From Pirellulales bacterium (GTDB lineage: Bacteria > Planctomycetota > Planctomycetia > Pirellulales > PALSA-1355), in assembly GCA_963733035.1 (NCBI GenBank), contig CAVTBU010000009.1, positions 128,001-192,000 of the forward strand: DNA of 64,000 nucleotides, given 5' to 3'. A model generated the notes under the pieces. The model was not told the DNA's origin, ran no database searches, and saw only the letters and a list, made by a program, of their open reading frames with translations. The position numbers and the translations under genes were made by a program. Positions 14,691-22,778 of this stretch are shown here, piece by piece. Positions within the stretch are counted from its first letter, which is position 1; every line of letters begins with the position of its first letter.

Positions 14691-15858
14691 CTAGAGCACT
14701 CGGCCAAGCCCGTCGACCAACTGGTCGATCATGGACCGCGTGTGCGTGGCAAAAACGGCGACGCGCAGCATACCATCGGGCCCTGCGCCTGCATAGTTGC
14801 GGGTGTAGGCGATGGCGATACCAGCCGCGAGCAACTGCTGCTGAACGCGCTGCATGTCGGCGGCATTTTCGAGGCGGAAGCTAATGATGGGTGTCGGCCA
14901 GGGTTCAATCTCCAAGCCAAGGTCTCGCAAGGCGTCGCGCGCGTATTTGGCATTGTCCGCTAACTGCGACCTTAGGGCCGGCTCGGTCTGTATGATCTCC
15001 AGCGCCCTGGCCGTTGCGGCGGCGACGGGAGCGGCCGGCGCGCTTGCGCCGCGAAACCAGCCACTCGACTGGCGCACGTCGCTCAGGAATTCGCGCGTGC
15101 CGACGATCGCGCCGCCCTGACCGCCGACGGCTTTGCTCAGCGTCGTGGTGTGGTAGACGGCCGTGCGCTCGACTGCCGGCGCAGACGCGTTAATTCGCTG
15201 CGGCGCGACGCCCGCCAGTTCCAAGCTGCCGCGACCGCCGCTGCCGAGGACGGCCATGCCATGCGCATCATCCACGAGCAACATGGCACCCTGATAGGCA
15301 TCGAGGATCGATAGATAGTCGCCAAGCGGCGCCAACCGGCCACTAGCGGCGAATACACCGTCGGTCATCACCAGCGGGCGCTGGCCTGGGTGCAGTTCGT
15401 GGCGCAAGCAATTCCGACATGTGCTGGGGATCGCGATGCCGAAACGCCAGCGGTGGACGGCTTAGCTCGGTCAGCCAATGCGTAGCCTCGCGCAGACAAT
15501 CGTGTGCCGACTCATCGATGAGTACCAGATCCACGAACTTGCTGAGCGCCGCTGCCAGGGCAAAATTCACGGCGTAGCCACTGACCAGGTAGCAGCACTC
15601 CTCGGCACCGAGAAACGTTGCCGTGCGCCGCTCGACTTCGAGAACTGGGGGACTAGTTCCATAGCCGCTGCGCGTGGTGGCCGTATGAATGCCGTACTTG
15701 ACACACGCCTGTTCGGCCGCCGCGATGACGGCCGGATGGCCTTGCAATGCCAGGTAGCCGGTGCCGGCGAAATACAAACATTCGCGGCCGCTCAACCATG
15801 CGTGCGTTGCCGGCGCCGATTCCATCAGGGGGAAATCATCTGAGGCCGGACGGGACAT
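14691..15858 (-). CDS. PLP-dependent alpha-oxoamine synthase (8-amino-7-oxononanoate synthase-like, aminotransferase class II); apparent frameshift near 15408
   Basis: N-half: FAGTGYLAL, SGYAVN, DESAH, FRH. C-half: TDGVF, VDDAHG, TLSKAVGGQGG (PLP Lys). Removing one T joins the frames. Confidence 0.75.
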
Positions 15859-15974
15859 GGTCTGCTGCTGGCGAAGGACCGAATGTTGCTGCGGCCACGA
15901 TTTTAGCCCGGAATGAGACCTGGATAGTCTCAAATGATCCCCCGAGGCCGGAATTAATCAGGGATGGGAGGGTA

Positions 15975-16002
15975 TTGACTTGGTGATTTGGGTAATTAGG
16001 GT
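15975..16002 (+). promoter_or_regulatory. Candidate sigma70-type promoter for subunit gene A
   Basis: TTGACT-N16-TAGGGT in an AT-rich patch about 140 nt upstream of ATG 16143. Confidence 0.35.
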
Positions 16003-16142
16003 GGATTCTTACTGCGATCGACTCTGATACGCTGCGCAGCACTTCGAGTCGCAAGCACCCGGTTTCCGCCCACGTTGGAAAATCCTTCGTTGGGCTCGTT
16101 ATCTCATTGCCCCACTGCGACTTTTGACGAGGATTTCCCCCT

Positions 16143-16571
16143 ATGAAGAACATTCTGATTCCCTGTGCCGCGTTGGCGCTGGTCTGTGGTCTGATTTCCG
16201 TGTCGACGGCGGGCGAACCCGCTGCCATTTCCGACTCAACGCTCGGCAGCATGGGCTTGGGCGGCATGCAGAAGATGTCGGATACCGATGGCCTTTTGGT
16301 CCGTGGTAAGGGCTACACCGGCTACGGCGGTGGCACCTCGGCCTCCGTTTGGGGCGGGAGCAGCGCCAACTGGTACGGTGGCCAGTCGTCGAACAACAAC
16401 TATGAAGCCAGCTCGTCGTGGTTGGGCCACGGCTCGTCGGCCACGGGTGGCAGCCTGAGCTTCGCCGGCAAGATCCAGGGCAGTTACGCGGCCGACCCGA
16501 CCGGTTCGGCTCTGTCGCTCACGATTTGCGGTGGTTTCGCCGGTGGCGGGGCCTTCGCGATTGCTCATTAA
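16143..16571 (+). CDS. Secreted Gly/Ser-rich small protein A (putative Fap-like amyloid subunit/precursor)
   Basis: Sec signal ending ..VSTA. Conserved LGSMGLGGMQKMSDTDGLLVRGKG, then a nearly uncharged G/S/A/N/W/Y/F core. Paralogous to the next two genes. Confidence 0.8.
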   Translation: MKNILIPCAALALVCGLISVSTAGEPAAISDSTLGSMGLGGMQKMSDTDGLLVRGKGYTGYGGGTSASVWGGSSANWYGGQSSNNNYEASSSWLGHGSSATGGSLSFAGKIQGSYAADPTGSALSLTICGGFAGGGAFAIAH

Positions 16572-16606
16572 CCCAGTCTCGGTCCCAACGCCGACCTCAC
16601 TCTTCG

Positions 16607-16646
16607 AAGACCTGGTTGCCCCCCGCTCGGCAGCCAGGTCTTTTTT
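16607..16646 (+). terminator. Rho-independent terminator after gene A
   Basis: AAGACCTGGTTGCC / GGCAGCCAGGTCTT stem plus T-run. Confidence 0.85.
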
Positions 16647-16769
16647 AATTGGATTTGCCAAAAACATGCGGGCTTGGGGAACATTTGGACGCTGAAACGC
16701 CGGTTTTTGGCAGCGAGCAGGTGCTGTTGGAGAACTAGTGAAGATAGTAGGAATATACCGATCACCCTG

Positions 16770-16798
16770 TTGACAATGGTTTTAGCGGCAATTAGTCT
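16770..16798 (+). promoter_or_regulatory. Candidate strong sigma70-type promoter for subunit gene B
   Basis: Consensus TTGACA, 17-nt spacer, TAGTCT. Confidence 0.55.
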
Positions 16799-16959
16799 GC
16801 TACTCGATTGGTCGCTGCGCAGCATCAATCCGGTTTGACAGTCGAGGCCAGCAGGCCGCTGTTGAACGCGTTTTCCCTCATTTTGCCAGGCGCATGCCAG
16901 CCATGTCGCCACCTTCGGGGGATGTCTAGCTACGGTGATTCCACTTTCATGAGGACACA

Positions 16960-17355
16960 ATGATGAAGCACGTTGCAATTGCTTGTGCGGCAGTGATGTT
17001 GTTTGCTGCCACGGCGACGGCTGCCGAGCCGGTTGCCAAGTCGACCCTCAGCAGCATGGGCCTGGGCGGGATGCAGCAGATGTCGGACAACGACGGTCTG
17101 GCTGTCCGCGGTAAGGGTACGTTCGCCCACGTATGGGGCGGAAGCCAGGCGAATTGGTACGGCGGTCAGTCGTCGACCAACAACTACAATGCAGGCGCCC
17201 AGTGGCTCGGCAAGAGCTCGACCGCCGTTGGCGGTAGCTTGAGCTTTGCTGGCAAGCTGCAGGTCAGCGGTGCCGCCGATCCGACCGGCTTCGCCATCCA
17301 AGGCCAATTGGGTGTTGGCTTCGCCGGTGGTGCGGCGTTCGCCAAGGCTTGGTAA
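16960..17355 (+). CDS. Secreted Gly/Ser-rich small protein B (putative Fap-like subunit)
   Basis: GAGGA RBS. Signal ending ..ATA. LSSMGLGGMQQMSDNDGLAVRGKG; core VWGGSQANWYGGQSSTNNY...GGSLSFAGK...GFAGGAAFA. Confidence 0.85.
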   Translation: MMKHVAIACAAVMLFAATATAAEPVAKSTLSSMGLGGMQQMSDNDGLAVRGKGTFAHVWGGSQANWYGGQSSTNNYNAGAQWLGKSSTAVGGSLSFAGKLQVSGAADPTGFAIQGQLGVGFAGGAAFAKAW

Positions 17356-17404
17356 CAAGCGGAATCGCTTGCTCATTGCGGCAAGTGCTCCCGTCTTTGC
17401 ACAA

Positions 17405-17451
17405 GCTGGCCCTGTCGTCGAATAGTCGGTGACAGGGCCAGCCCCTTTTTT
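17405..17451 (+). terminator. Terminator-like hairpin between genes B and C
   Basis: GCTGGCCCTGTC / GACAGGGCCAGC stem followed by CCCTTTTTT. Confidence 0.7.
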
Positions 17452-17464
17452 CAGCGAGGCCTCG

Positions 17465-17794
17465 ATGACAAAGATCTTCGTGTTAACGATCGCCCTGGTG
17501 ATTTCGTGCAGTGCAATTGCGGTGGCGGCCGATCAAGCCGTCTCCGCCGCGACGCTGGGAGCGATGGGCATCGGCCAGATGCAACCGCTGTCGGACGAAG
17601 ATGGCCTGGCCGTACGCGGTAAAGGCACTTTCGCCAACGTCTGGGGTTTTAGCCAGGCGAGGTGGGGCGGCCAATCGTCGTCGAACAACTACTCGGCCGG
17701 TTCCAGCTGGTTGGGACAGAGTTCTTCGGCATTGGGAGGAAGCCTAAGCTTTGGTGGGAAGGCGCAACTCGGCTTTGGTCATTTCGGTTGGTAA
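17465..17794 (+). CDS. Secreted Gly/Ser-rich small protein C (shorter paralogue)
   Basis: Signal ending ..AVA. LGAMGIGQMQPLSDEDGLAVRGKG. Lacks the AADPTG...GFAGG tail found in A and B. Confidence 0.8.
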   Translation: MTKIFVLTIALVISCSAIAVAADQAVSAATLGAMGIGQMQPLSDEDGLAVRGKGTFANVWGFSQARWGGQSSSNNYSAGSSWLGQSSSALGGSLSFGGKAQLGFGHFGW

Positions 17795-17822
17795 CGACCA
17801 TCTGAGGACGCCAGTAAACGAC

Positions 17823-17865
17823 CGGGCCCTGTCCACCTGTAAAGTTGGACAGGGCCCGTTTTTTT
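17823..17865 (+). terminator. Rho-independent terminator after gene C
   Basis: CGGGCCCTGTCCA / TGGACAGGGCCCG stem plus T7. Confidence 0.85.
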
Positions 17866-17882
17866 GCTTTCCGCAAGGTGCG

Positions 17883-19070
17883 CTAGTACATGATACCCGC
17901 ACCGATCGTCAGGCCCACGAGTTGGAACAATATGTCGCCAGCCTGAGTGGTGGCAAAGCTCGAAGCGGTTCCGCTGTTGGCGACCGACAGTGCTCCCGCG
18001 GCCACTCCGGCATTCGCGTCCCAGTATTGCCACTCGATGCCCGTGCGAAAGAACGCTCGGCCGGGAAGGCACCGCAAGCACGCATCCCATTGCAGTCCGG
18101 CACCGAGTTCCATGATGAACATGTCGCCGTTGCCCTTGGCCAGGGCGCCGTCGGTCGACTCAAAAAACCCGGAACCGTTGGCCGCTTGCGTGTTGGTTTG
18201 CGCGGTGGCAACGCCGTTGCCCCACAAGATCGAGTAGCGGTTGGTGAAATAGGCTTTGAGAGCCCCATCGTCGCAGAACAGCGGCCGCAGCCCCCACACT
18301 CCGAATGTCAAGCCGGCCCCGTTGAACTGCTGGCCGGCGTACGACATCGACTGCACGAGGTCGCTGCCAAACGTGTTCTGTGTCCATAAGCTGCGGTCGT
18401 TGTTTACCGAGGCGTACCGCGCTCCCAGGAATCCGTACATGTCCCAATTGTGCCAGCAGAAGCGGCGCTGCACCTCCAGGTCGACAGTATAGATGTTGAA
18501 CGTGTCGAACAGGATGACGCCACTCTGCACGGCGTCGGGGATTGCCGGAATAAAACCGTTTGCCGACGTCCCGGAGTTCCAGTAGCGGCCAACCAGCCCC
18601 CAGCACTCACCCATCACACCCATGGTGACTCGAGGCCCGACAAGGAGCCCACCTTCGACCGAACCGAGTGCCGAGTTGTTCACAATCGACACGTCGCCGA
18701 GGCTGTTCGAAAAACCATTGTTGAGAAAGTTGCGACTGATTTGCGGCCAAAAGAAGGTCGCCTCGATGCCCACGACGAACTGGCAACGCGGGCCGCAGCC
18801 GCCCGTGTAGCAAGTCGTGCACTGCCCTGGAAGCGGAGCCACGGCGCTTTGTGCTTCGGGCGTTTCAACCGGCTCCTGGGCATCCCAGCGGCTGGTAGGC
18901 ACTTGCGCCGGAGCGGGTGTCGCCGGCTGCACGGTTTGTTGCGCGGAAACCTGTTGGATGAGAGGCGGACGGAACACCGGTTCGGTGAAATCGTCGCCAT
19001 GAGCTGAGCCGGCGGCGGCACATCCAATCGCCGCGATCAGCGAGCAGAACCATTTTCGAGTTGTCTTCAT
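17883..19070 (-). CDS. Planctomycete outer-membrane beta-barrel protein (BBP7/Lpg1974-like)
   Basis: Signal peptide, Pro/Gln linker, Cys-rich patch. Alternating beta-strands (VGIEATFFWP, YTVDLEVQRR, ELGAGLQW, RTGIEWQYW). C-terminal aromatic residue (GLTIGAGIMY). GAGGAG RBS. Confidence 0.7.
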   Translation of the reverse strand: MKTTRKWFCSLIAAIGCAAAGSAHGDDFTEPVFRPPLIQQVSAQQTVQPATPAPAQVPTSRWDAQEPVETPEAQSAVAPLPGQCTTCYTGGCGPRCQFVVGIEATFFWPQISRNFLNNGFSNSLGDVSIVNNSALGSVEGGLLVGPRVTMGVMGECWGLVGRYWNSGTSANGFIPAIPDAVQSGVILFDTFNIYTVDLEVQRRFCWHNWDMYGFLGARYASVNNDRSLWTQNTFGSDLVQSMSYAGQQFNGAGLTFGVWGLRPLFCDDGALKAYFTNRYSILWGNGVATAQTNTQAANGSGFFESTDGALAKGNGDMFIMELGAGLQWDACLRCLPGRAFFRTGIEWQYWDANAGVAAGALSVANSGTASSFATTQAGDILFQLVGLTIGAGIMY

Positions 19071-19747
19071 CTCCTCACCCCTCCTGGGAGAGCTGGTTGC
19101 CACGGCGGGCATCGCCAGCGAATGCGAACCGTATTTGTCTAATGTTCAGAACGCGCTTGGGTCGTCCACCGCTTCGAACGCCTCGGCCGGTCTTACCCCA
19201 TCCGACTTTGACGTTCGATCCCCGCGGCAAACCGCGAACCGGTGCAATGGCGCGAGGCGCCACCGCACTTTTCGTTGCACGTATCATCGTCCGCATGATC
19301 GGACGAATTGATGCCTCATGTCTTCGGCGGATCAACACTTACAACCGATACGCCCAGAATATGCGTTACGGCTGACGCAACCGTTACAGATTCCGCCGCA
19401 AGTAGTCTTCCGGCCGGACGCGTGAGATGCTGTCAACCCCCGGCGAGCAGCCGCAAGTCCAAGGGGCAAAAAGAGAAAGCTGCGTAATGCAGCCGTCTGT
19501 AAAGCTGGGGATCCTGGCGAAACTTTGGCGGCTCGTATGACTGTTCTCATTGTATGGGATATGGCGGTCGATCCAGTTCCAAGGGCTGTAACGGTTGTAC
19601 CCGGATCGAAGAAGGTGCCGCAGCCTTGGAAACAAGTTGAGTTGAGACCATCAGGTTGCCTGGTTCGCACAAATCTCGTGGTGTGCGGGCCAATTTGCAG
19701 GCTACCGAACCGACAGGCAGCGGGCATCAGTAGTAAAAGGGTGGGCC

Positions 19748-21097
19748 ATGGATGAACCGCACGGGATCTCGGGACGACGCCTCCCGCAGCGATCCGCGCG
19801 ACGAGTCTTCGCCGCAGGGCTACTAGTTCTGTGCGCGCTCAACGTGGCCCCGGCCCAGGGCGACGAGCCGGAGGGTCCCCGCGCCCTTTCGGCCGTCGCA
19901 ACAACACCCGCGGCACAGCCAATTTCGCTGCCGCCGAGGTCACACCGCCTGCCGCCGGTCGAAGCGTCAACGACGTCCGGGTTTGCGAGCTACGCCGCCG
20001 GCCAATCGGCGCCACTGTTCGCCGACCCGTACGACGGCCAGCAGGTCAACTACATAACCGCGGCACCCGGCGGGCCGGCGGCTTCGACGTCAAATCCGCT
20101 CACGGCCCTGACTCCCGGTCAGCCATTGATTCGTTTTTCGGGCATGCAAGATCCAGACGCTCCGCGTCCGCCGGCCGAGAAGAACGCGGATTCCGCCGCC
20201 GAAGGCGGCCCAGATACGGAAGCTGGCGAGGGGGCCGAACAAACCTACGGACAAGCGCCGACCAACAACTCGCTGCAGTTTCTGCGCGACGTCGACGTCT
20301 TGCTCGCGCCTGGCAAGTGGCAGTTCGATACCGGCTTCGTCTACACGCACTTCTCCAATAACTTTCCCGTCGCCCTCATCAACGGTGGAGGAGACGTGGT
20401 GGGCGTGGAACAAGGCGAGGTACGGCGCCGGTTGCTCTACACTCCGCTGGCCTATCGCTACGGCATAACGAACAACATTCAGTTCTTCTCCTTCATGCCA
20501 GTCGGGTTTTCCAACACGCAGTTCTCGTCGCTCAACACCAGCGAAACCACGAACGTCAGCGGTTTGGGCGATCTGACGGCCGGCGTGAGCATCCACCTGA
20601 TCAAAGGAGAAGACCAGATGCCGGACGTGATCGGCACGGTCGGCTTCACGGCGCCGACCGGAAAGTTTTCGACGCCGATCTTTGGTCTTGTGCCGGGATC
20701 CAATCTGGGCCAGGGATACTGGGCCTACAACGCGCAATTGCTGTTCATTAACCGTTACGACCCGGTGATCGTGTTTTACGGAGGTGGTTACCGGCACTTG
20801 TGGGAGCGCAGCTTCAACGGTCAGCTGATCGCGCCAGGCGAACAAGTGAACTACATGCTTGGCGTCGGCTTCGCCGTCAACGATCGCGTTACACTGAGTT
20901 CCACGTTCCAGGGCTACTACATTACAAATACGTTCATCAACGGCTCGAACCTTCGCGGCTCGAACCTGGAGCCGTTGAGCATGCGATTCGCTGCAACGAT
21001 CGTGCGAAACTGCCGAATTATCGAACCATTCGTGCAATTAGGGGCGACGAATTCCGCCCCGCGGGTCAACGTAGGCGTGGTCGTAACGTTCTACTAG
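19748..21097 (+). CDS. FapF-like outer-membrane transporter (COG4313/MetA-pathway-type beta-barrel)
   Basis: Signal and low-complexity linker, then GKWQFDTGFVY, GLGD, MPDVIGTVGFTAPTGK, GQGYW, RYDPVIVF, GVGFAVNDRVTLS, LGATNSAP and a C-terminal Tyr. These match FapF motifs as I recall them, in the same order. Confidence 0.75.
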   Translation: MDEPHGISGRRLPQRSARRVFAAGLLVLCALNVAPAQGDEPEGPRALSAVATTPAAQPISLPPRSHRLPPVEASTTSGFASYAAGQSAPLFADPYDGQQVNYITAAPGGPAASTSNPLTALTPGQPLIRFSGMQDPDAPRPPAEKNADSAAEGGPDTEAGEGAEQTYGQAPTNNSLQFLRDVDVLLAPGKWQFDTGFVYTHFSNNFPVALINGGGDVVGVEQGEVRRRLLYTPLAYRYGITNNIQFFSFMPVGFSNTQFSSLNTSETTNVSGLGDLTAGVSIHLIKGEDQMPDVIGTVGFTAPTGKFSTPIFGLVPGSNLGQGYWAYNAQLLFINRYDPVIVFYGGGYRHLWERSFNGQLIAPGEQVNYMLGVGFAVNDRVTLSSTFQGYYITNTFINGSNLRGSNLEPLSMRFAATIVRNCRIIEPFVQLGATNSAPRVNVGVVVTFY

Positions 21098-21153
21098 TCG
21101 CCCCGCCAGTCGAGCATGTCAGGTCTTTCCAGCAGCGAATAAGGGAGCTTCGC

Positions 21154-21921
21154 ATGGCCGCACAATTCGCTCATCGCTGGGTCTGGCACCCACGAAACAT
21201 CCGCAACACTTGTCTGGCGTGGCTGGTGGCGTGTTTCCTGTCCGCATTGGCGGCTCCGGCTTGCGCTCAATTCAACCAATACACGCGGGCTCCTATCCGA
21301 AACCCAGATCGAATCATTCGCGAATACGTTTGGAGCTACAAGGAACTGCGCAAGCGCCAGGTGGTAATGCAGAAGCTCGACTACTCATGCGGCGCCGCGT
21401 CGCTGGCAACGATCTGCCGTTACTATTGGGGCGATAATATCACGGAGGAGACTTTTCTGCGGCTGATTCCGAAGCTGAAGCTCACCGCCGCACAAATCAA
21501 GGATCGCATTGAGAACGGACTCACGCTGACCGATCTGCGCGACATGGCCAACCTGGCGGGTTACCAGTCGTCGATGGGGAAAGTGAAGTTCTCGGAACTG
21601 GCCGAGGCCAAAGTGCCGGTAATTGTCGGTATCACGGTGCGCAAGCACGATCACTTTGCCGTCTTTCGCGGCACCGACGGCTATTACGTCTATCTGGCCG
21701 ACCCCATTCGCGGCAATATCCGCGTGGTGGCCGACACGTTTGTGCGGGAATGGCAACAGAATGCGATCCTGGTCGTCGCCAAGCCCGGCGCGAAGGTAAA
21801 GGAGGTCAATCCGATGGGCGTGCGGTTCCCGGAAATCTTCCGTGGGCTGCTGAACGACCAGACGGTGAACCGCAACTGGACAATGAGCACGGTTCCCAAC
21901 CCGGTCCGCATCGGACAGTAG
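21154..21921 (+). CDS. Stand-alone secreted C39 family cysteine peptidase (FapD-like)
   Basis: Signal-like segment. SYKELR...QKLDYSCGAASLATI (Gln/Cys), DHFAV (His), LADPIRG (Asp), F...W. No ABC transporter domains. Confidence 0.85.
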   Translation: MAAQFAHRWVWHPRNIRNTCLAWLVACFLSALAAPACAQFNQYTRAPIRNPDRIIREYVWSYKELRKRQVVMQKLDYSCGAASLATICRYYWGDNITEETFLRLIPKLKLTAAQIKDRIENGLTLTDLRDMANLAGYQSSMGKVKFSELAEAKVPVIVGITVRKHDHFAVFRGTDGYYVYLADPIRGNIRVVADTFVREWQQNAILVVAKPGAKVKEVNPMGVRFPEIFRGLLNDQTVNRNWTMSTVPNPVRIGQ

Positions 21922-22079
21922 GTCAATTGCCCGCCCGGCGACGGGCTTCCGGCAAGGACATCCGTGGAACGACGTCGCGACGCTTGCGGCAATTTGGCCA
22001 CAAACGCGGGATGCAATTTCTTGACCAGCGAGCTACGATTGAGCAGCGGCGGGGTCGCCAGGGTCGTAAAGGAAATCCC

Positions 22080-22778
22080 ATGTCCGAGATGTCCGAGCCA
22101 AGTTCGTCGGAATACCACGGTGAGCGCCTGGAGTTCTTAACGGTTCTGGGGCTGGCTCCGCCGGTTACCGAGGAGGACGTCAAGCAGGCATACCTCGTCA
22201 AAGCCCGCACCGCGCACCCGGACCAGGGAGGAGACGTCGAGCAGTTCAAGCGGCTTCAAGAAGCGTTCGAGCAGGCTACGGAGTACGCCCGTTTCAAGTC
22301 GAGCCGCATGCAATGGCTCAGCCGGTGGGTCGAGCAATATGCCGAGCAAGACAAGTTCATCGAGCGCATCAAAGGCCTGGGGGGGCACGTCGAGGTGAAG
22401 GCCTCGGACCCGATGACCCGCTCGATCGGGCCCGACTTTGCCGTCGTGCTCGACAAGCTGACGGGCATCTCGCTGGAAGGTCCTAACATCGACGACGCCA
22501 CGATGGCGGAACTCGTGAGCCAGAAGCGGATGCTCGCCGGCCTGCACAAACTAGCACTCCTCGATACGTCCGTCACCTACGTTGGTCTTCTCAAAGTTCG
22601 AGAGTTGCAAAACCTTCGCGAGTTGGATTTGAGCGGCACGGAAGTCGACCCCGCCACGCTTGAGCCAGTGCTGCGAGAACTGCGCTCGCTCGAAGTGCTG
22701 AAACTCGACCGGACCGGCATTGGCTGGCCGGCACGGGTGAAGTTGCGAGTGCGGTATCGCAACTTGACGATCTCCTAG
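22080..22778 (+). CDS. DnaJ-domain protein with C-terminal leucine-rich repeats
   Basis: VLGL..VKQAY..ARTAHPDQGG (HPD motif). LRRs LRELDLSGTEV and LEVLKLDRTGI. Confidence 0.8.
   Translation: MSEMSEPSSSEYHGERLEFLTVLGLAPPVTEEDVKQAYLVKARTAHPDQGGDVEQFKRLQEAFEQATEYARFKSSRMQWLSRWVEQYAEQDKFIERIKGLGGHVEVKASDPMTRSIGPDFAVVLDKLTGISLEGPNIDDATMAELVSQKRMLAGLHKLALLDTSVTYVGLLKVRELQNLRELDLSGTEVDPATLEPVLRELRSLEVLKLDRTGIGWPARVKLRVRYRNLTIS

Follow-up and report, generated by a model that had tools for sequence, protein, structure and literature searches.

A Probable Four-Part Export Module of One Planctomycete Order, with FapF- and FapD-Homologous Machinery and a New Family of Presumed Cargo Proteins

Introduction

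What would a barrel-and-peptidase pair of the kind known from the Fap system of Pseudomonas be doing in a planctomycete, next to a row of small secreted proteins? The question is raised by a 64,000-nucleotide stretch of a Pirellulales genome (assembly GCA_963733035.1, contig CAVTBU010000009.1, positions 128,001 to 192,000), which we refer to as the window and whose numbering we use throughout. Between 16143 and 21921, six genes encode three small secreted proteins (sp1, sp2 and sp3), an outer-membrane protein (OMP409), an outer-membrane barrel and a stand-alone C39 cysteine peptidase. An earlier account made from the letters and open reading frames (ORFs) of the window, here called the sequence-only reading, had placed six genes in this region, and all six are found there.

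According to a 2013 survey, Fap had been reported only in Beta-, Gamma- and Deltaproteobacteria and was read as evolutionarily young, while FapD and FapF belong to larger families (Dueholm 2013); the sequence-only reading, which took Fap systems to be described mainly in Proteobacteria, agrees with this. In what follows, we argue that the locus probably encodes a four-part export module of one planctomycete order, in which a new cargo family is carried by homologous machinery. The idea of a distinct subunit family on homologous machinery had been put forward from sequence; we find the machinery to be homologous and the small-protein family to be without detectable similarity to Fap subunits.

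The Barrel Is a Homologue of FapF

The barrel gene (19748–21097, + strand) encodes a 449-residue protein in which a signal peptide is followed by a stretch rich in Pro and Ala that is disordered (about residues 34–170) and precedes the barrel; here and below, signal peptides were assessed by eye from a basic n-region, a hydrophobic core and an A-x-A-type site. The only Pfam match of the protein is PF13557, sub-threshold in hmmscan at 21.4 bits against a gathering cut-off of 22 and at 22.7 bits in a six-frame search of the genome. This borderline score is one ground for a rival explanation, in which the barrel does no more than take up hydrophobic compounds, as an ordinary COG4313/Phenol_MetA_deg channel, and has its neighbours by chance.

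Sequence comparison points to FapF instead. The best NCBIfam family for the barrel is FapF (3.8e-9, 35.8 bits against an equivalog cut-off of 700), and in a search of PDB sequences all four matched sequences at E ≤ 10 are FapF, the best at 7.5e-8. A profile of the barrel's own clade, built from 28 homologues and called A2, finds FapF among PDB sequences at 2.8e-24, with a match spanning residues 32–327 of the 334-residue chain; the other rows, at E 1.3 and 3.8, are both unrelated proteins, and no COG4313 structure matches the profile at E ≤ 10. To obtain reference barrels, we searched a plasmid collection and annotated the matches with NCBIfam, which yielded an Aeromonas caviae record with a full fapBCDEF set. 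With the A2 profile, the FapF of this operon reaches 85.8 bits and a further five FapF-like barrels from Proteobacteria reach 68–81 bits, whereas the four other, ordinary PF13557 proteins of the planctomycete genome give no match at E ≤ 10.

The same reference set indicates how family labels are to be read. The Aeromonas FapF scores 29.2 bits against PF13557 and fails the NCBIfam FapF cut-off, with 371 bits against 700, and the Aeromonas FapD is likewise under its cut-off (249 bits against 330). The NCBIfam equivalog cut-offs are thus narrow, and because a true FapF matches PF13557 yet misses its own equivalog threshold, neither the PF13557 nor the NCBIfam FapF label settles membership. A PF13557 match therefore does not tell uptake channels from Fap-type exporters.

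The predicted fold leads to the same place. In the AlphaFold2 (AF2) model of the barrel, most blocks have a predicted local distance difference test (pLDDT) value above 90, and the top Foldseek match is FapF (E 6.7e-18, target-normalised template-modelling (TM) score 0.76–0.81, 20–22% identity), followed by the COG4313 structure 4rl8 (E 4.5e-12, TM 0.69). The second place of COG4313 can be counted for the uptake channel; the order also agrees with Rouse 2017, which names COG4313 as the structure closest to FapF. Whether the barrel would side with FapF or with non-Fap COG4313 channels had been posed as a test from the sequence, and in the PDB search, in Foldseek and with the A2 profile it groups with FapF.

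Homology extends to single residues. The FapF-type motifs picked out in the sequence-only reading are present in a residue-for-residue alignment to FapF, with GKWQFDTGFVY in the barrel for GKFSFETGITY in FapF, MPDVIGTVGFTAPTGK for MPDAVVSVRVKAPTGK, GQGYW for GNGVW, YDPVIVF for FDPAVLF and GVGFAVNDR for GVAFALNER, as well as a ..DDAP block. E111 and R157, given as the lumen pair of FapF in Rouse 2017, correspond to D194 and R237 of the barrel, both invariant in the clade; equivalents of E98 and K401, the plug-pinning salt bridge of FapF, were not assignable from the alignments. In the AF2 model, a short helix (residues 177–181) falls in a clade-conserved LQFLR stretch just before strand 1. Further upstream, the N-termini of the proteobacterial FapF-like proteins give weak matches to helical coiled-coil-type families, and those of the planctomycete barrels give none. 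We conclude that the barrel is homologous to FapF.

The barrel family counts at least 485 representatives at 50% identity (E ≤ 1e-30). The 150 best of these all fall in the barrel's own clade, at 346 bits or more, and profile scores were used in place of a tree. Homologues range from 266 to 1005 residues, and the match is always C-terminal, so the N-terminal periplasmic extensions differ by hundreds of residues.

The C39 Peptidase Resembles FapD

Directly downstream of the barrel gene, on the same strand and with no gene in between, lies the gene of a 255-residue C39 cysteine peptidase (21154–21921, + strand). The protein matches PF03412 (2.3e-17, 63.5 bits against a cut-off of 22), and its best NCBIfam family is FapD (1.8e-23, 83 bits against an equivalog cut-off of 330), with FilB second (74.2 bits against 475). 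It stands alone, with a signal-like sequence at the N-terminus (by eye) and without a transporter domain, and it is the sole C39 peptidase of the genome. The FapD-type start motif that had been noticed from sequence is there, as Q..DYSCGAASLATI, and Q73, C79, H167 and D183 are invariant in all nine aligned proteins, five planctomycete and four proteobacterial FapD-like. The peptidase is a homologue of FapD with intact catalytic residues. The peptidase additionally matches the peptidase domains of bacteriocin-export ABC transporters, a point to which we return below.

Four Gene Families Travel Together

Another component is the outer-membrane protein OMP409, encoded on the opposite strand between the small genes and the barrel gene (17883–19070, - strand; 395 residues from an MK start common to its homologues, the longest ORF reaching 19112). 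Its signal peptide is followed by a variable Pro/Gln-rich linker and then by a Cys-rich motif; the C-terminal region is barrel-like and has an aromatic last residue. None of eight family members matches Pfam at E ≤ 1, and OMP409 has no match among PDB sequences at E ≤ 10. By features, its nearest Atlas clusters are planctomycete Legionella_OMP/BBP7-like proteins (score 0.98), and kinship with Legionella_OMP/BBP7-type porins of planctomycetes is a lead only. OMP409 is present in all six loci that we compared gene by gene, and a homologue was found in 17 of 29 further barrel loci, for which the flank was just 1.5 kb. Judged by this gene order, OMP409 is a linked fourth component of the module, beyond what the sequence-only reading had proposed.

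A search of genome contigs with the small-protein alignment returned five loci, three of which are syntenic relatives of the window and one of which (L006) is an orphan small gene. In the fifth (L008, from a metagenome-assembled genome (MAG) titled Rubripirellula), the small gene, the OMP409-type gene, the barrel gene and the C39 gene all lie on one strand between other flanks; in a further locus, outside these five (L011, genome G370), the OMP409-type, barrel and C39 genes are followed by a convergent small gene. Together with the window type, these make three arrangements of the same module. A metagenome search added 15 loci, including two full modules (L016 and L020), one contig that ends after a small gene and an OMP409-type gene (L026) and one that ends just after the small genes (L014); ten others were too short or had the match at a contig end. 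In an all-against-all comparison of six loci, the four gene families alone are common to all six, and the recurrent neighbours otherwise are sulfatases and an oxidoreductase.

We then turn to distribution. In a sample of the phylum queried with a single protein, the barrel was found in 2 of 401 genomes (G000 and G370), both of this order. Within a sample of the order, again 401 genomes, the barrel occurs in 69, across 12 of 30 families (50 of the 301 high-quality genomes), and the small-protein family in 67; 66 genomes carry both, three the barrel only, one the small family only and 331 neither, with the caveat that these are counts over related genomes and thus not independent of one another. 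The barrel and the small proteins nonetheless have their patchy spread over families in common. In 60 of the 66 genomes with both, the barrel gene has a small gene no more than 10 kb away, the remaining six being assemblies of 210–1340 contigs, and 95 of 140 small-gene matches are within that distance. A C39 homologue sits directly downstream of the barrel gene, on the same strand, in all 29 order-survey loci, some of which repeat genomes of earlier loci (L067 and L011, for example). The sequence-only reading had made the co-occurrence of the small family with FapF/C39 genes a test of itself, and the small family and the barrel occur together in 66 of 70 genomes with either, with C39 at 29 of 29. 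We conclude that the four gene families are tightly linked in several arrangements. Cultured carriers of the barrel appear to exist, since one of its homologues bears the name Bremerella sp. JC770.

This linkage also bears on the uptake channel. A coincidental neighbourhood is hard to square with a peptidase next to the barrel gene in 29 of 29 loci and a small family that tracks the barrel across genomes, and there are no aromatic-degradation genes among the genes neighbouring the barrel. Added to the behaviour of the A2 profile, which finds FapF and neither a COG4313 structure nor the PF13557 paralogues of the genome, this makes an ordinary uptake channel very improbable.

The Small Proteins Share a Leader-Like Segment and a Beta-Prone Core

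The three small genes lie in tandem on the + strand: sp1 at 16143–16571 (142 residues), sp2 at 16960–17355 (131 residues) and sp3 at 17465–17794 (109 residues, with a shorter C-terminus). For sp3, a longer GTG alternative at 17429 falls within the terminator-like hairpin of sp2. The three had been called paralogues, and sp2 and sp3 are indeed 65% and 55% identical to sp1. They are the only three matches to their family in the 6.6-Mb genome. Across the order survey the family has 1 to 10 matches per genome (G580, G457 and G572 being noted), and many copies lie on contigs other than that of the barrel. The family comprises 102 clusters at E ≤ 1e-3, all of them lacking a Pfam domain and named no more closely than 'hypothetical', and the nearest Atlas clusters are unnamed planctomycete clusters. 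The earlier remark that this cargo lacks FapB/C repeats is borne out, as none of the small proteins matches the NCBIfam FapB or FapC models at E ≤ 1. The same is true of the seven window proteins searched, with models that do detect the Aeromonas proteins.

Each small protein consists of a Sec signal, a 29-residue leader-like segment and a core of Gly, Ala, Ser and aromatic residues. The leader has the consensus VSxSTLxxMGLGxMQxMSDxDGLAVRGKG, in which MG and RG are invariant (in sp1 it reads ISDSTLGSMGLGGMQKMSDTDGLLVRGKG), and residues 24–53 are the most conserved part of the protein, at 0.80 against 0.66 in the core and 0.56 in the C-terminus. Over the family, Gly makes up 20% of the core, Ala 18% and Ser 14%; aromatic residues are present, charged ones are few and Cys is absent. 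The core of sp1 is 24% Gly, 19% Ser and 14% Ala.

The AF2 model of sp2 (mean pLDDT 69.5) has four strands in the core (54–65, 71–82, 89–106 and 113–130) and two short helices within the leader (27–32 and 43–50). A fold search with this model (VIA-align wide) gave no usable match, the best, at Z 3.4, being long beta-hairpins of pore-forming proteins. When four copies of sp2 residues 24–131 were modelled together, self-association scored 0.67 against 0.00 for the best of three controls, with at least 76% of contacts in agreement between runs and a partner pLDDT of at least 72; strands 1 and 4 of one copy pack against strands 2 and 3 of the next. Among solved structures, 20 of 30 pairs of one chain and one of 23 single chains reach the mark used, a calibration that applies only roughly here, because four copies and a custom alignment were used. 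The modelling supports a putative self-association of the small proteins.

A second rival explanation enters here, namely that the small proteins are accessory factors, either FapA-like chaperones or oligomeric beta subunits that insert into the outer membrane, while the substrate is encoded elsewhere or is the N-terminal part of the barrel itself. In favour of this, Fap includes a small protein of the periplasm, FapA; the sp2 model has four long strands; 33 of the 102 family members end in Trp; and FapF itself was considered a possible FapD target in Rouse 2017. Yet family members differ in their last residue, which is not always aromatic (W 33, N 14, K 12, M 11, R 10, H 9, F 6), and this argues against an outer-membrane insertion signal; the copy number of 1 to 10 per genome does not sit well with an accessory role either. 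Moreover, sp1 and sp2 have strong terminator-like hairpins of their own, which would be typical of abundant structural subunits, and the module has no other conserved candidate cargo gene. We consider an accessory role quite unlikely and regard the small proteins as the likely substrates of the barrel and the C39 peptidase.

A Candidate Processing Signal

If the small proteins are substrates, where would the peptidase act? Rouse 2017 reports that FapD activity is required for FapC secretion, calls the FapD substrate and recognition site unclear, and describes FapE alone as N-terminally processed, with removal of a FapF-targeting sequence suggested. In a 2026 preprint, involvement in precursor processing is still all that is said of FapD. 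In the planctomycete family, the leaders end in [VI]-R-G-[KQTE], and G[GS] follows MGx in 69 of 102 members. In four FapE-position proteins of proteobacterial loci, an L-x-x-x-R-G-[GR] stretch follows soon after the signal peptide, with L, R and G invariant (alignment A5); its likeness to ..VRGKG was judged by eye and is at the level of a motif.

A similar leader also occurs once before another kind of core. In genome G462 (locus L069, 2580–2903, - strand), a secreted ORF of 107 residues has the leader-like sequence ..AMGL..SEADAIRGEGG, whereas its core is unrelated, repetitive and rich in Lys, Val and Asp; a diverged barrel–C39 pair lies 4.7 kb away. A leader-only profile run over five genomes recovered the small genes already known from G716 and G572, returned in G462 just the ORF already in the model and gave nothing in G508 and G663 (78–79% complete), so G462 remains the single example of a modular leader on other cargo. 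Among longer proteins bearing the leader, none was found at E ≤ 0.01, which is weak evidence.

These features fit a third explanation, in which the small proteins are diffusible products, bacteriocin- or microcin-like or signalling peptides, that leave through the barrel once the C39 peptidase has matured them and do not form fibres. C39 peptidases classically mature bacteriocin precursors (Rouse 2017), and the match of our peptidase to the bacteriocin-export domains is in keeping with this, as are a Gly-rich cargo built of leader and variable core, the several tandem paralogues and the G462 leader before its unrelated core. On the other hand, no immunity-like gene is conserved, the four families alone being shared by the six loci; the cores are predicted to be long beta-hairpins that self-associate in silico; and the cargo of Fap, the closest characterised machinery, consists of fibre subunits. 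Nor does a second outer-membrane protein, dedicated to the module, go easily with a diffusible product. We therefore think diffusible products unlikely.

A Proposed Model for Export and Assembly

In the export route that we favour, the small proteins would cross the inner membrane by Sec, and the conserved 29-residue N-terminal segment would then act in the periplasm as a leader for targeting and processing. The FapD-like C39 peptidase would process the small proteins or gate the channel, with a cut at or near the invariant RG; we give cleavage at the leader an even chance. The FapF-homologous barrel would move the unfolded Gly/Ala/Ser/aromatic cores through the outer membrane, and outside the cell the cores may stack into beta-sheet-rich fibres or a surface matrix, which OMP409 may anchor or nucleate, a role that for OMP409 is speculation. 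That the final product is a fibre or amyloid-like is a serious possibility that falls somewhat short of an even chance.

Several observations weigh against this export route or parts of it. As regards the cargo, the small proteins have no detectable similarity to the NCBIfam FapB, FapC and FapE models or to the ORFs of the six FapF-like loci from Proteobacteria; the monomer model of sp2 is of only moderate confidence and its fold is without a clear match; and stacking in silico may be a general behaviour of beta-rich chains of Gly, Ala and Ser. As regards processing, a canonical double-glycine site is not conserved (GG follows MGx in 40 of 102 members), the residue after the invariant RG is K, Q, T or E, and an hhalign comparison of the small family with the four FapE-position proteins is not significant (E 0.48). 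The coiled coil of FapF is not found in the barrel, for which the AF2 model shows residues 34–170 without a helix and all at pLDDT below 50. As regards linkage, 45 of 140 small-gene matches lie more than 10 kb from the barrel gene or on another contig, three genomes (two of them 78–79% complete) have the barrel and no small-family match at E ≤ 1e-6, and two loci are orphans, a small gene on a 10-kb contig (L006) and one with 10 kb of downstream flank (L019).

Relation to Known Systems

The module would work like Fap yet is not a Fap operon. The label 'Fap-like' given in the sequence-only reading is right; a label of Fap proper would be wrong, because FapA, FapB, FapC and FapE (by sequence in the locus), the coiled coil, the second PTG motif and the gene order are all missing. 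What is shared with the Pseudomonas system is a barrel homologous in sequence, in motifs including the first PTG, in the E111/R157-equivalent pair and in fold; an adjoining gene for a homologous, Sec-exported, stand-alone C39 peptidase with intact catalytic residues; several small Sec-dependent, beta-prone secreted proteins encoded alongside; and a presumed cargo with a conserved N-terminal segment, as proposed for FapE. What differs begins with the subunits: no FapA, FapB, FapC or FapE match was found in the locus with NCBIfam (FapA and FapE were not searched genome-wide), and the cargo belongs to a new Gly/Ala/Ser/aromatic family without Asn/Gln repeats. The planctomycete barrel has neither the N-terminal coiled coil nor the second PTG motif. 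In Fap, the D, E and F genes follow one another on one strand with the subunit genes, whereas here the barrel gene precedes the C39 gene, the small genes stand apart and an extra linked outer-membrane protein is encoded, in the window on the opposite strand. The host, finally, is a member of the Planctomycetota.

Other loci of this kind are found among Proteobacteria. We observed Fap-like loci on a Polymorphobacter plasmid (L038, 2448–6819), a Croceicoccus plasmid (L039, 2522–6786) and a Cupriavidus replicon (L036, 1311–6918), each of which encodes, besides its C39 peptidase and FapF-like barrel, a FapE-position protein, a small protein and a repeat protein rich in Asn, Ser and Thr; two of the three belong to the Alphaproteobacteria, a class outside the three of the 2013 survey. 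Cargo of the Cupriavidus locus gives no match to the NCBIfam FapB/C models. Like the planctomycete module, these loci set a C39 peptidase and a FapF-like barrel next to secreted proteins that are not FapB/C; they differ in having a FapE-position gene between peptidase and barrel and a cargo unrelated to the planctomycete family.

As the NCBIfam names FilB and FilC show, the annotation of an Acinetobacter pilus, Fil, likewise includes a C39 peptidase paired with a FapF-like protein. FapF-type barrels also match the FilC model and the window peptidase matches FilB below its cut-off, whereas the window barrel has no FilC match at E ≤ 1. The Fil names are taken from NCBIfam only, our literature search found no description of the Fil mechanism, and one paper names FilA as a pilus subunit and gives no more than the name.

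Curli offer a parallel in logic only. In curli, unfolded CsgA and CsgB are exported by Sec, bear an N-terminal targeting segment and pass the CsgG outer-membrane channel with CsgE and CsgF before extracellular assembly. No component is homologous, and curli have no protease step. Peptidase-containing transporters (PCATs), with their bacteriocin and microcin substrates bearing double-glycine leaders, share the peptidase family and the leader-plus-core layout of the presumed substrates, whereas the peptidase here is free, signal-bearing and paired with an outer-membrane pore, and the substrates carry Sec signals and no conserved GG. COG4313/PF13557 channels such as Pput2725 belong to the same barrel superfamily, give the second-best fold match and have the first PTG in common, while being further away in sequence than FapF and standing in another gene context. 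In the literature search, no description of this planctomycete module was found, and matches combining FapF and Planctomycetes were incidental.

Gene Layout and Regulatory Elements

The non-coding parts of the locus suggest how its genes may be expressed. Promoter-like sites were read from the sequence on the + strand upstream of sp1 (TTGACT, 16 nt, TAGGGT; 15975–16002), which a consensus promoter scanner did not flag, and of sp2 (TTGACA, 17 nt, TAGTCT; 16770–16798), whose layout is aligned in L005, L016 and L020; these are the putative promoters of the two genes. Just downstream of each lies the palindrome GCTGCGCAGC (16031–16040 before sp1 and 16814–16823 before sp2, without strand), which is kept 5' of the small genes in the same three loci; the exact 11-mer TGCTGCGCAGC occurs twice in the 64-kb window, once before sp1 and once before sp2. 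The palindrome may be an operator or a 5' untranslated region (5'-UTR) element. Terminator-like hairpins followed by a T run stand on the + strand after sp1 (15 pairs, 16606–16643) and sp2 (17 pairs, 17405–17442), and that after sp3 is weaker than either. From the promoter-like sites, palindromes and hairpins of sp1 and sp2, the small genes look like separate units, each terminated individually.

The divergent intergenic region of 677 nt between the OMP409 and barrel genes contains two conserved non-coding blocks. Block 1 (19253–19314), with the inverted repeat TCGTCCG-N6-CGGACGA at 19287–19306, is invariant in six of six aligned loci with the exception of the spacer between the repeat arms, which varies; block 2 (19537–19581), identified in the alignment of loci, lies about 170–210 nt 5' of the barrel start. 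Both blocks are invariant in the six loci despite proteins that are only about 45–60% identical. The repeat has two matches in the window against 0.00 expected, and the block that contains it is probably a shared regulatory site. The second copy, at 2680–2699, is far from the module. An Rfam scan of 15300–22300 gave no family for either block, its sole row being a chance miRNA (E 0.14).

Upstream of the module, an aminotransferase gene (14691–15933, - strand) appears split into overlapping ORFs in different frames (15343–15933 and 14691–15407), and its Aminotran_1_2 match (profile positions 143–360) is confined to the downstream ORF; a frameshift, a pseudogene and an assembly error are all conceivable. 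After the C39 gene comes a gene for a DnaJ-domain protein that also has leucine-rich repeats (22080–22778, + strand), which occupies the same place in L004, L005 and L007 and lies 5 kb further downstream in L020; because it is absent from L008, L011 and L016, the protein is probably outside the module. This gene was dropped from the list of module parts together with sulfatases, a GFO/IDH/MocA oxidoreductase, a beta-lactamase-family protein and the aminotransferase, which are not kept in distant loci.

Concluding Remarks

The machinery is homologous to that of Fap; what is new here is the cargo family, the extra outer-membrane protein and the phylum. A machinery pair described from Proteobacteria is tied to unrelated cargo in another phylum, in 69 of 401 genomes of one order, and from this planctomycete spread and unrelated cargo we argue that the FapD/FapF pair is an older, modular export device. 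More tentatively, FapD and FapF could form the core of a general leader-guided route, made up of Sec, a periplasmic C39 peptidase and a FapF-type pore, onto which different phyla load unrelated self-assembling cargo. The planctomycete cargo would then be a new class of small surface-fibre subunits, rich in Gly, Ala and Ser and silk- or amyloid-like, and the MG/RG leader would reveal the FapD-type signal, with LxxxRG[GR] as its proteobacterial counterpart. The short conserved leader of the planctomycete cargo offers a concrete cleavage-site hypothesis for FapD-type peptidases, and the four linked families are candidates for the genes behind a surface fibre or matrix made of protein in some of the Pirellulales.

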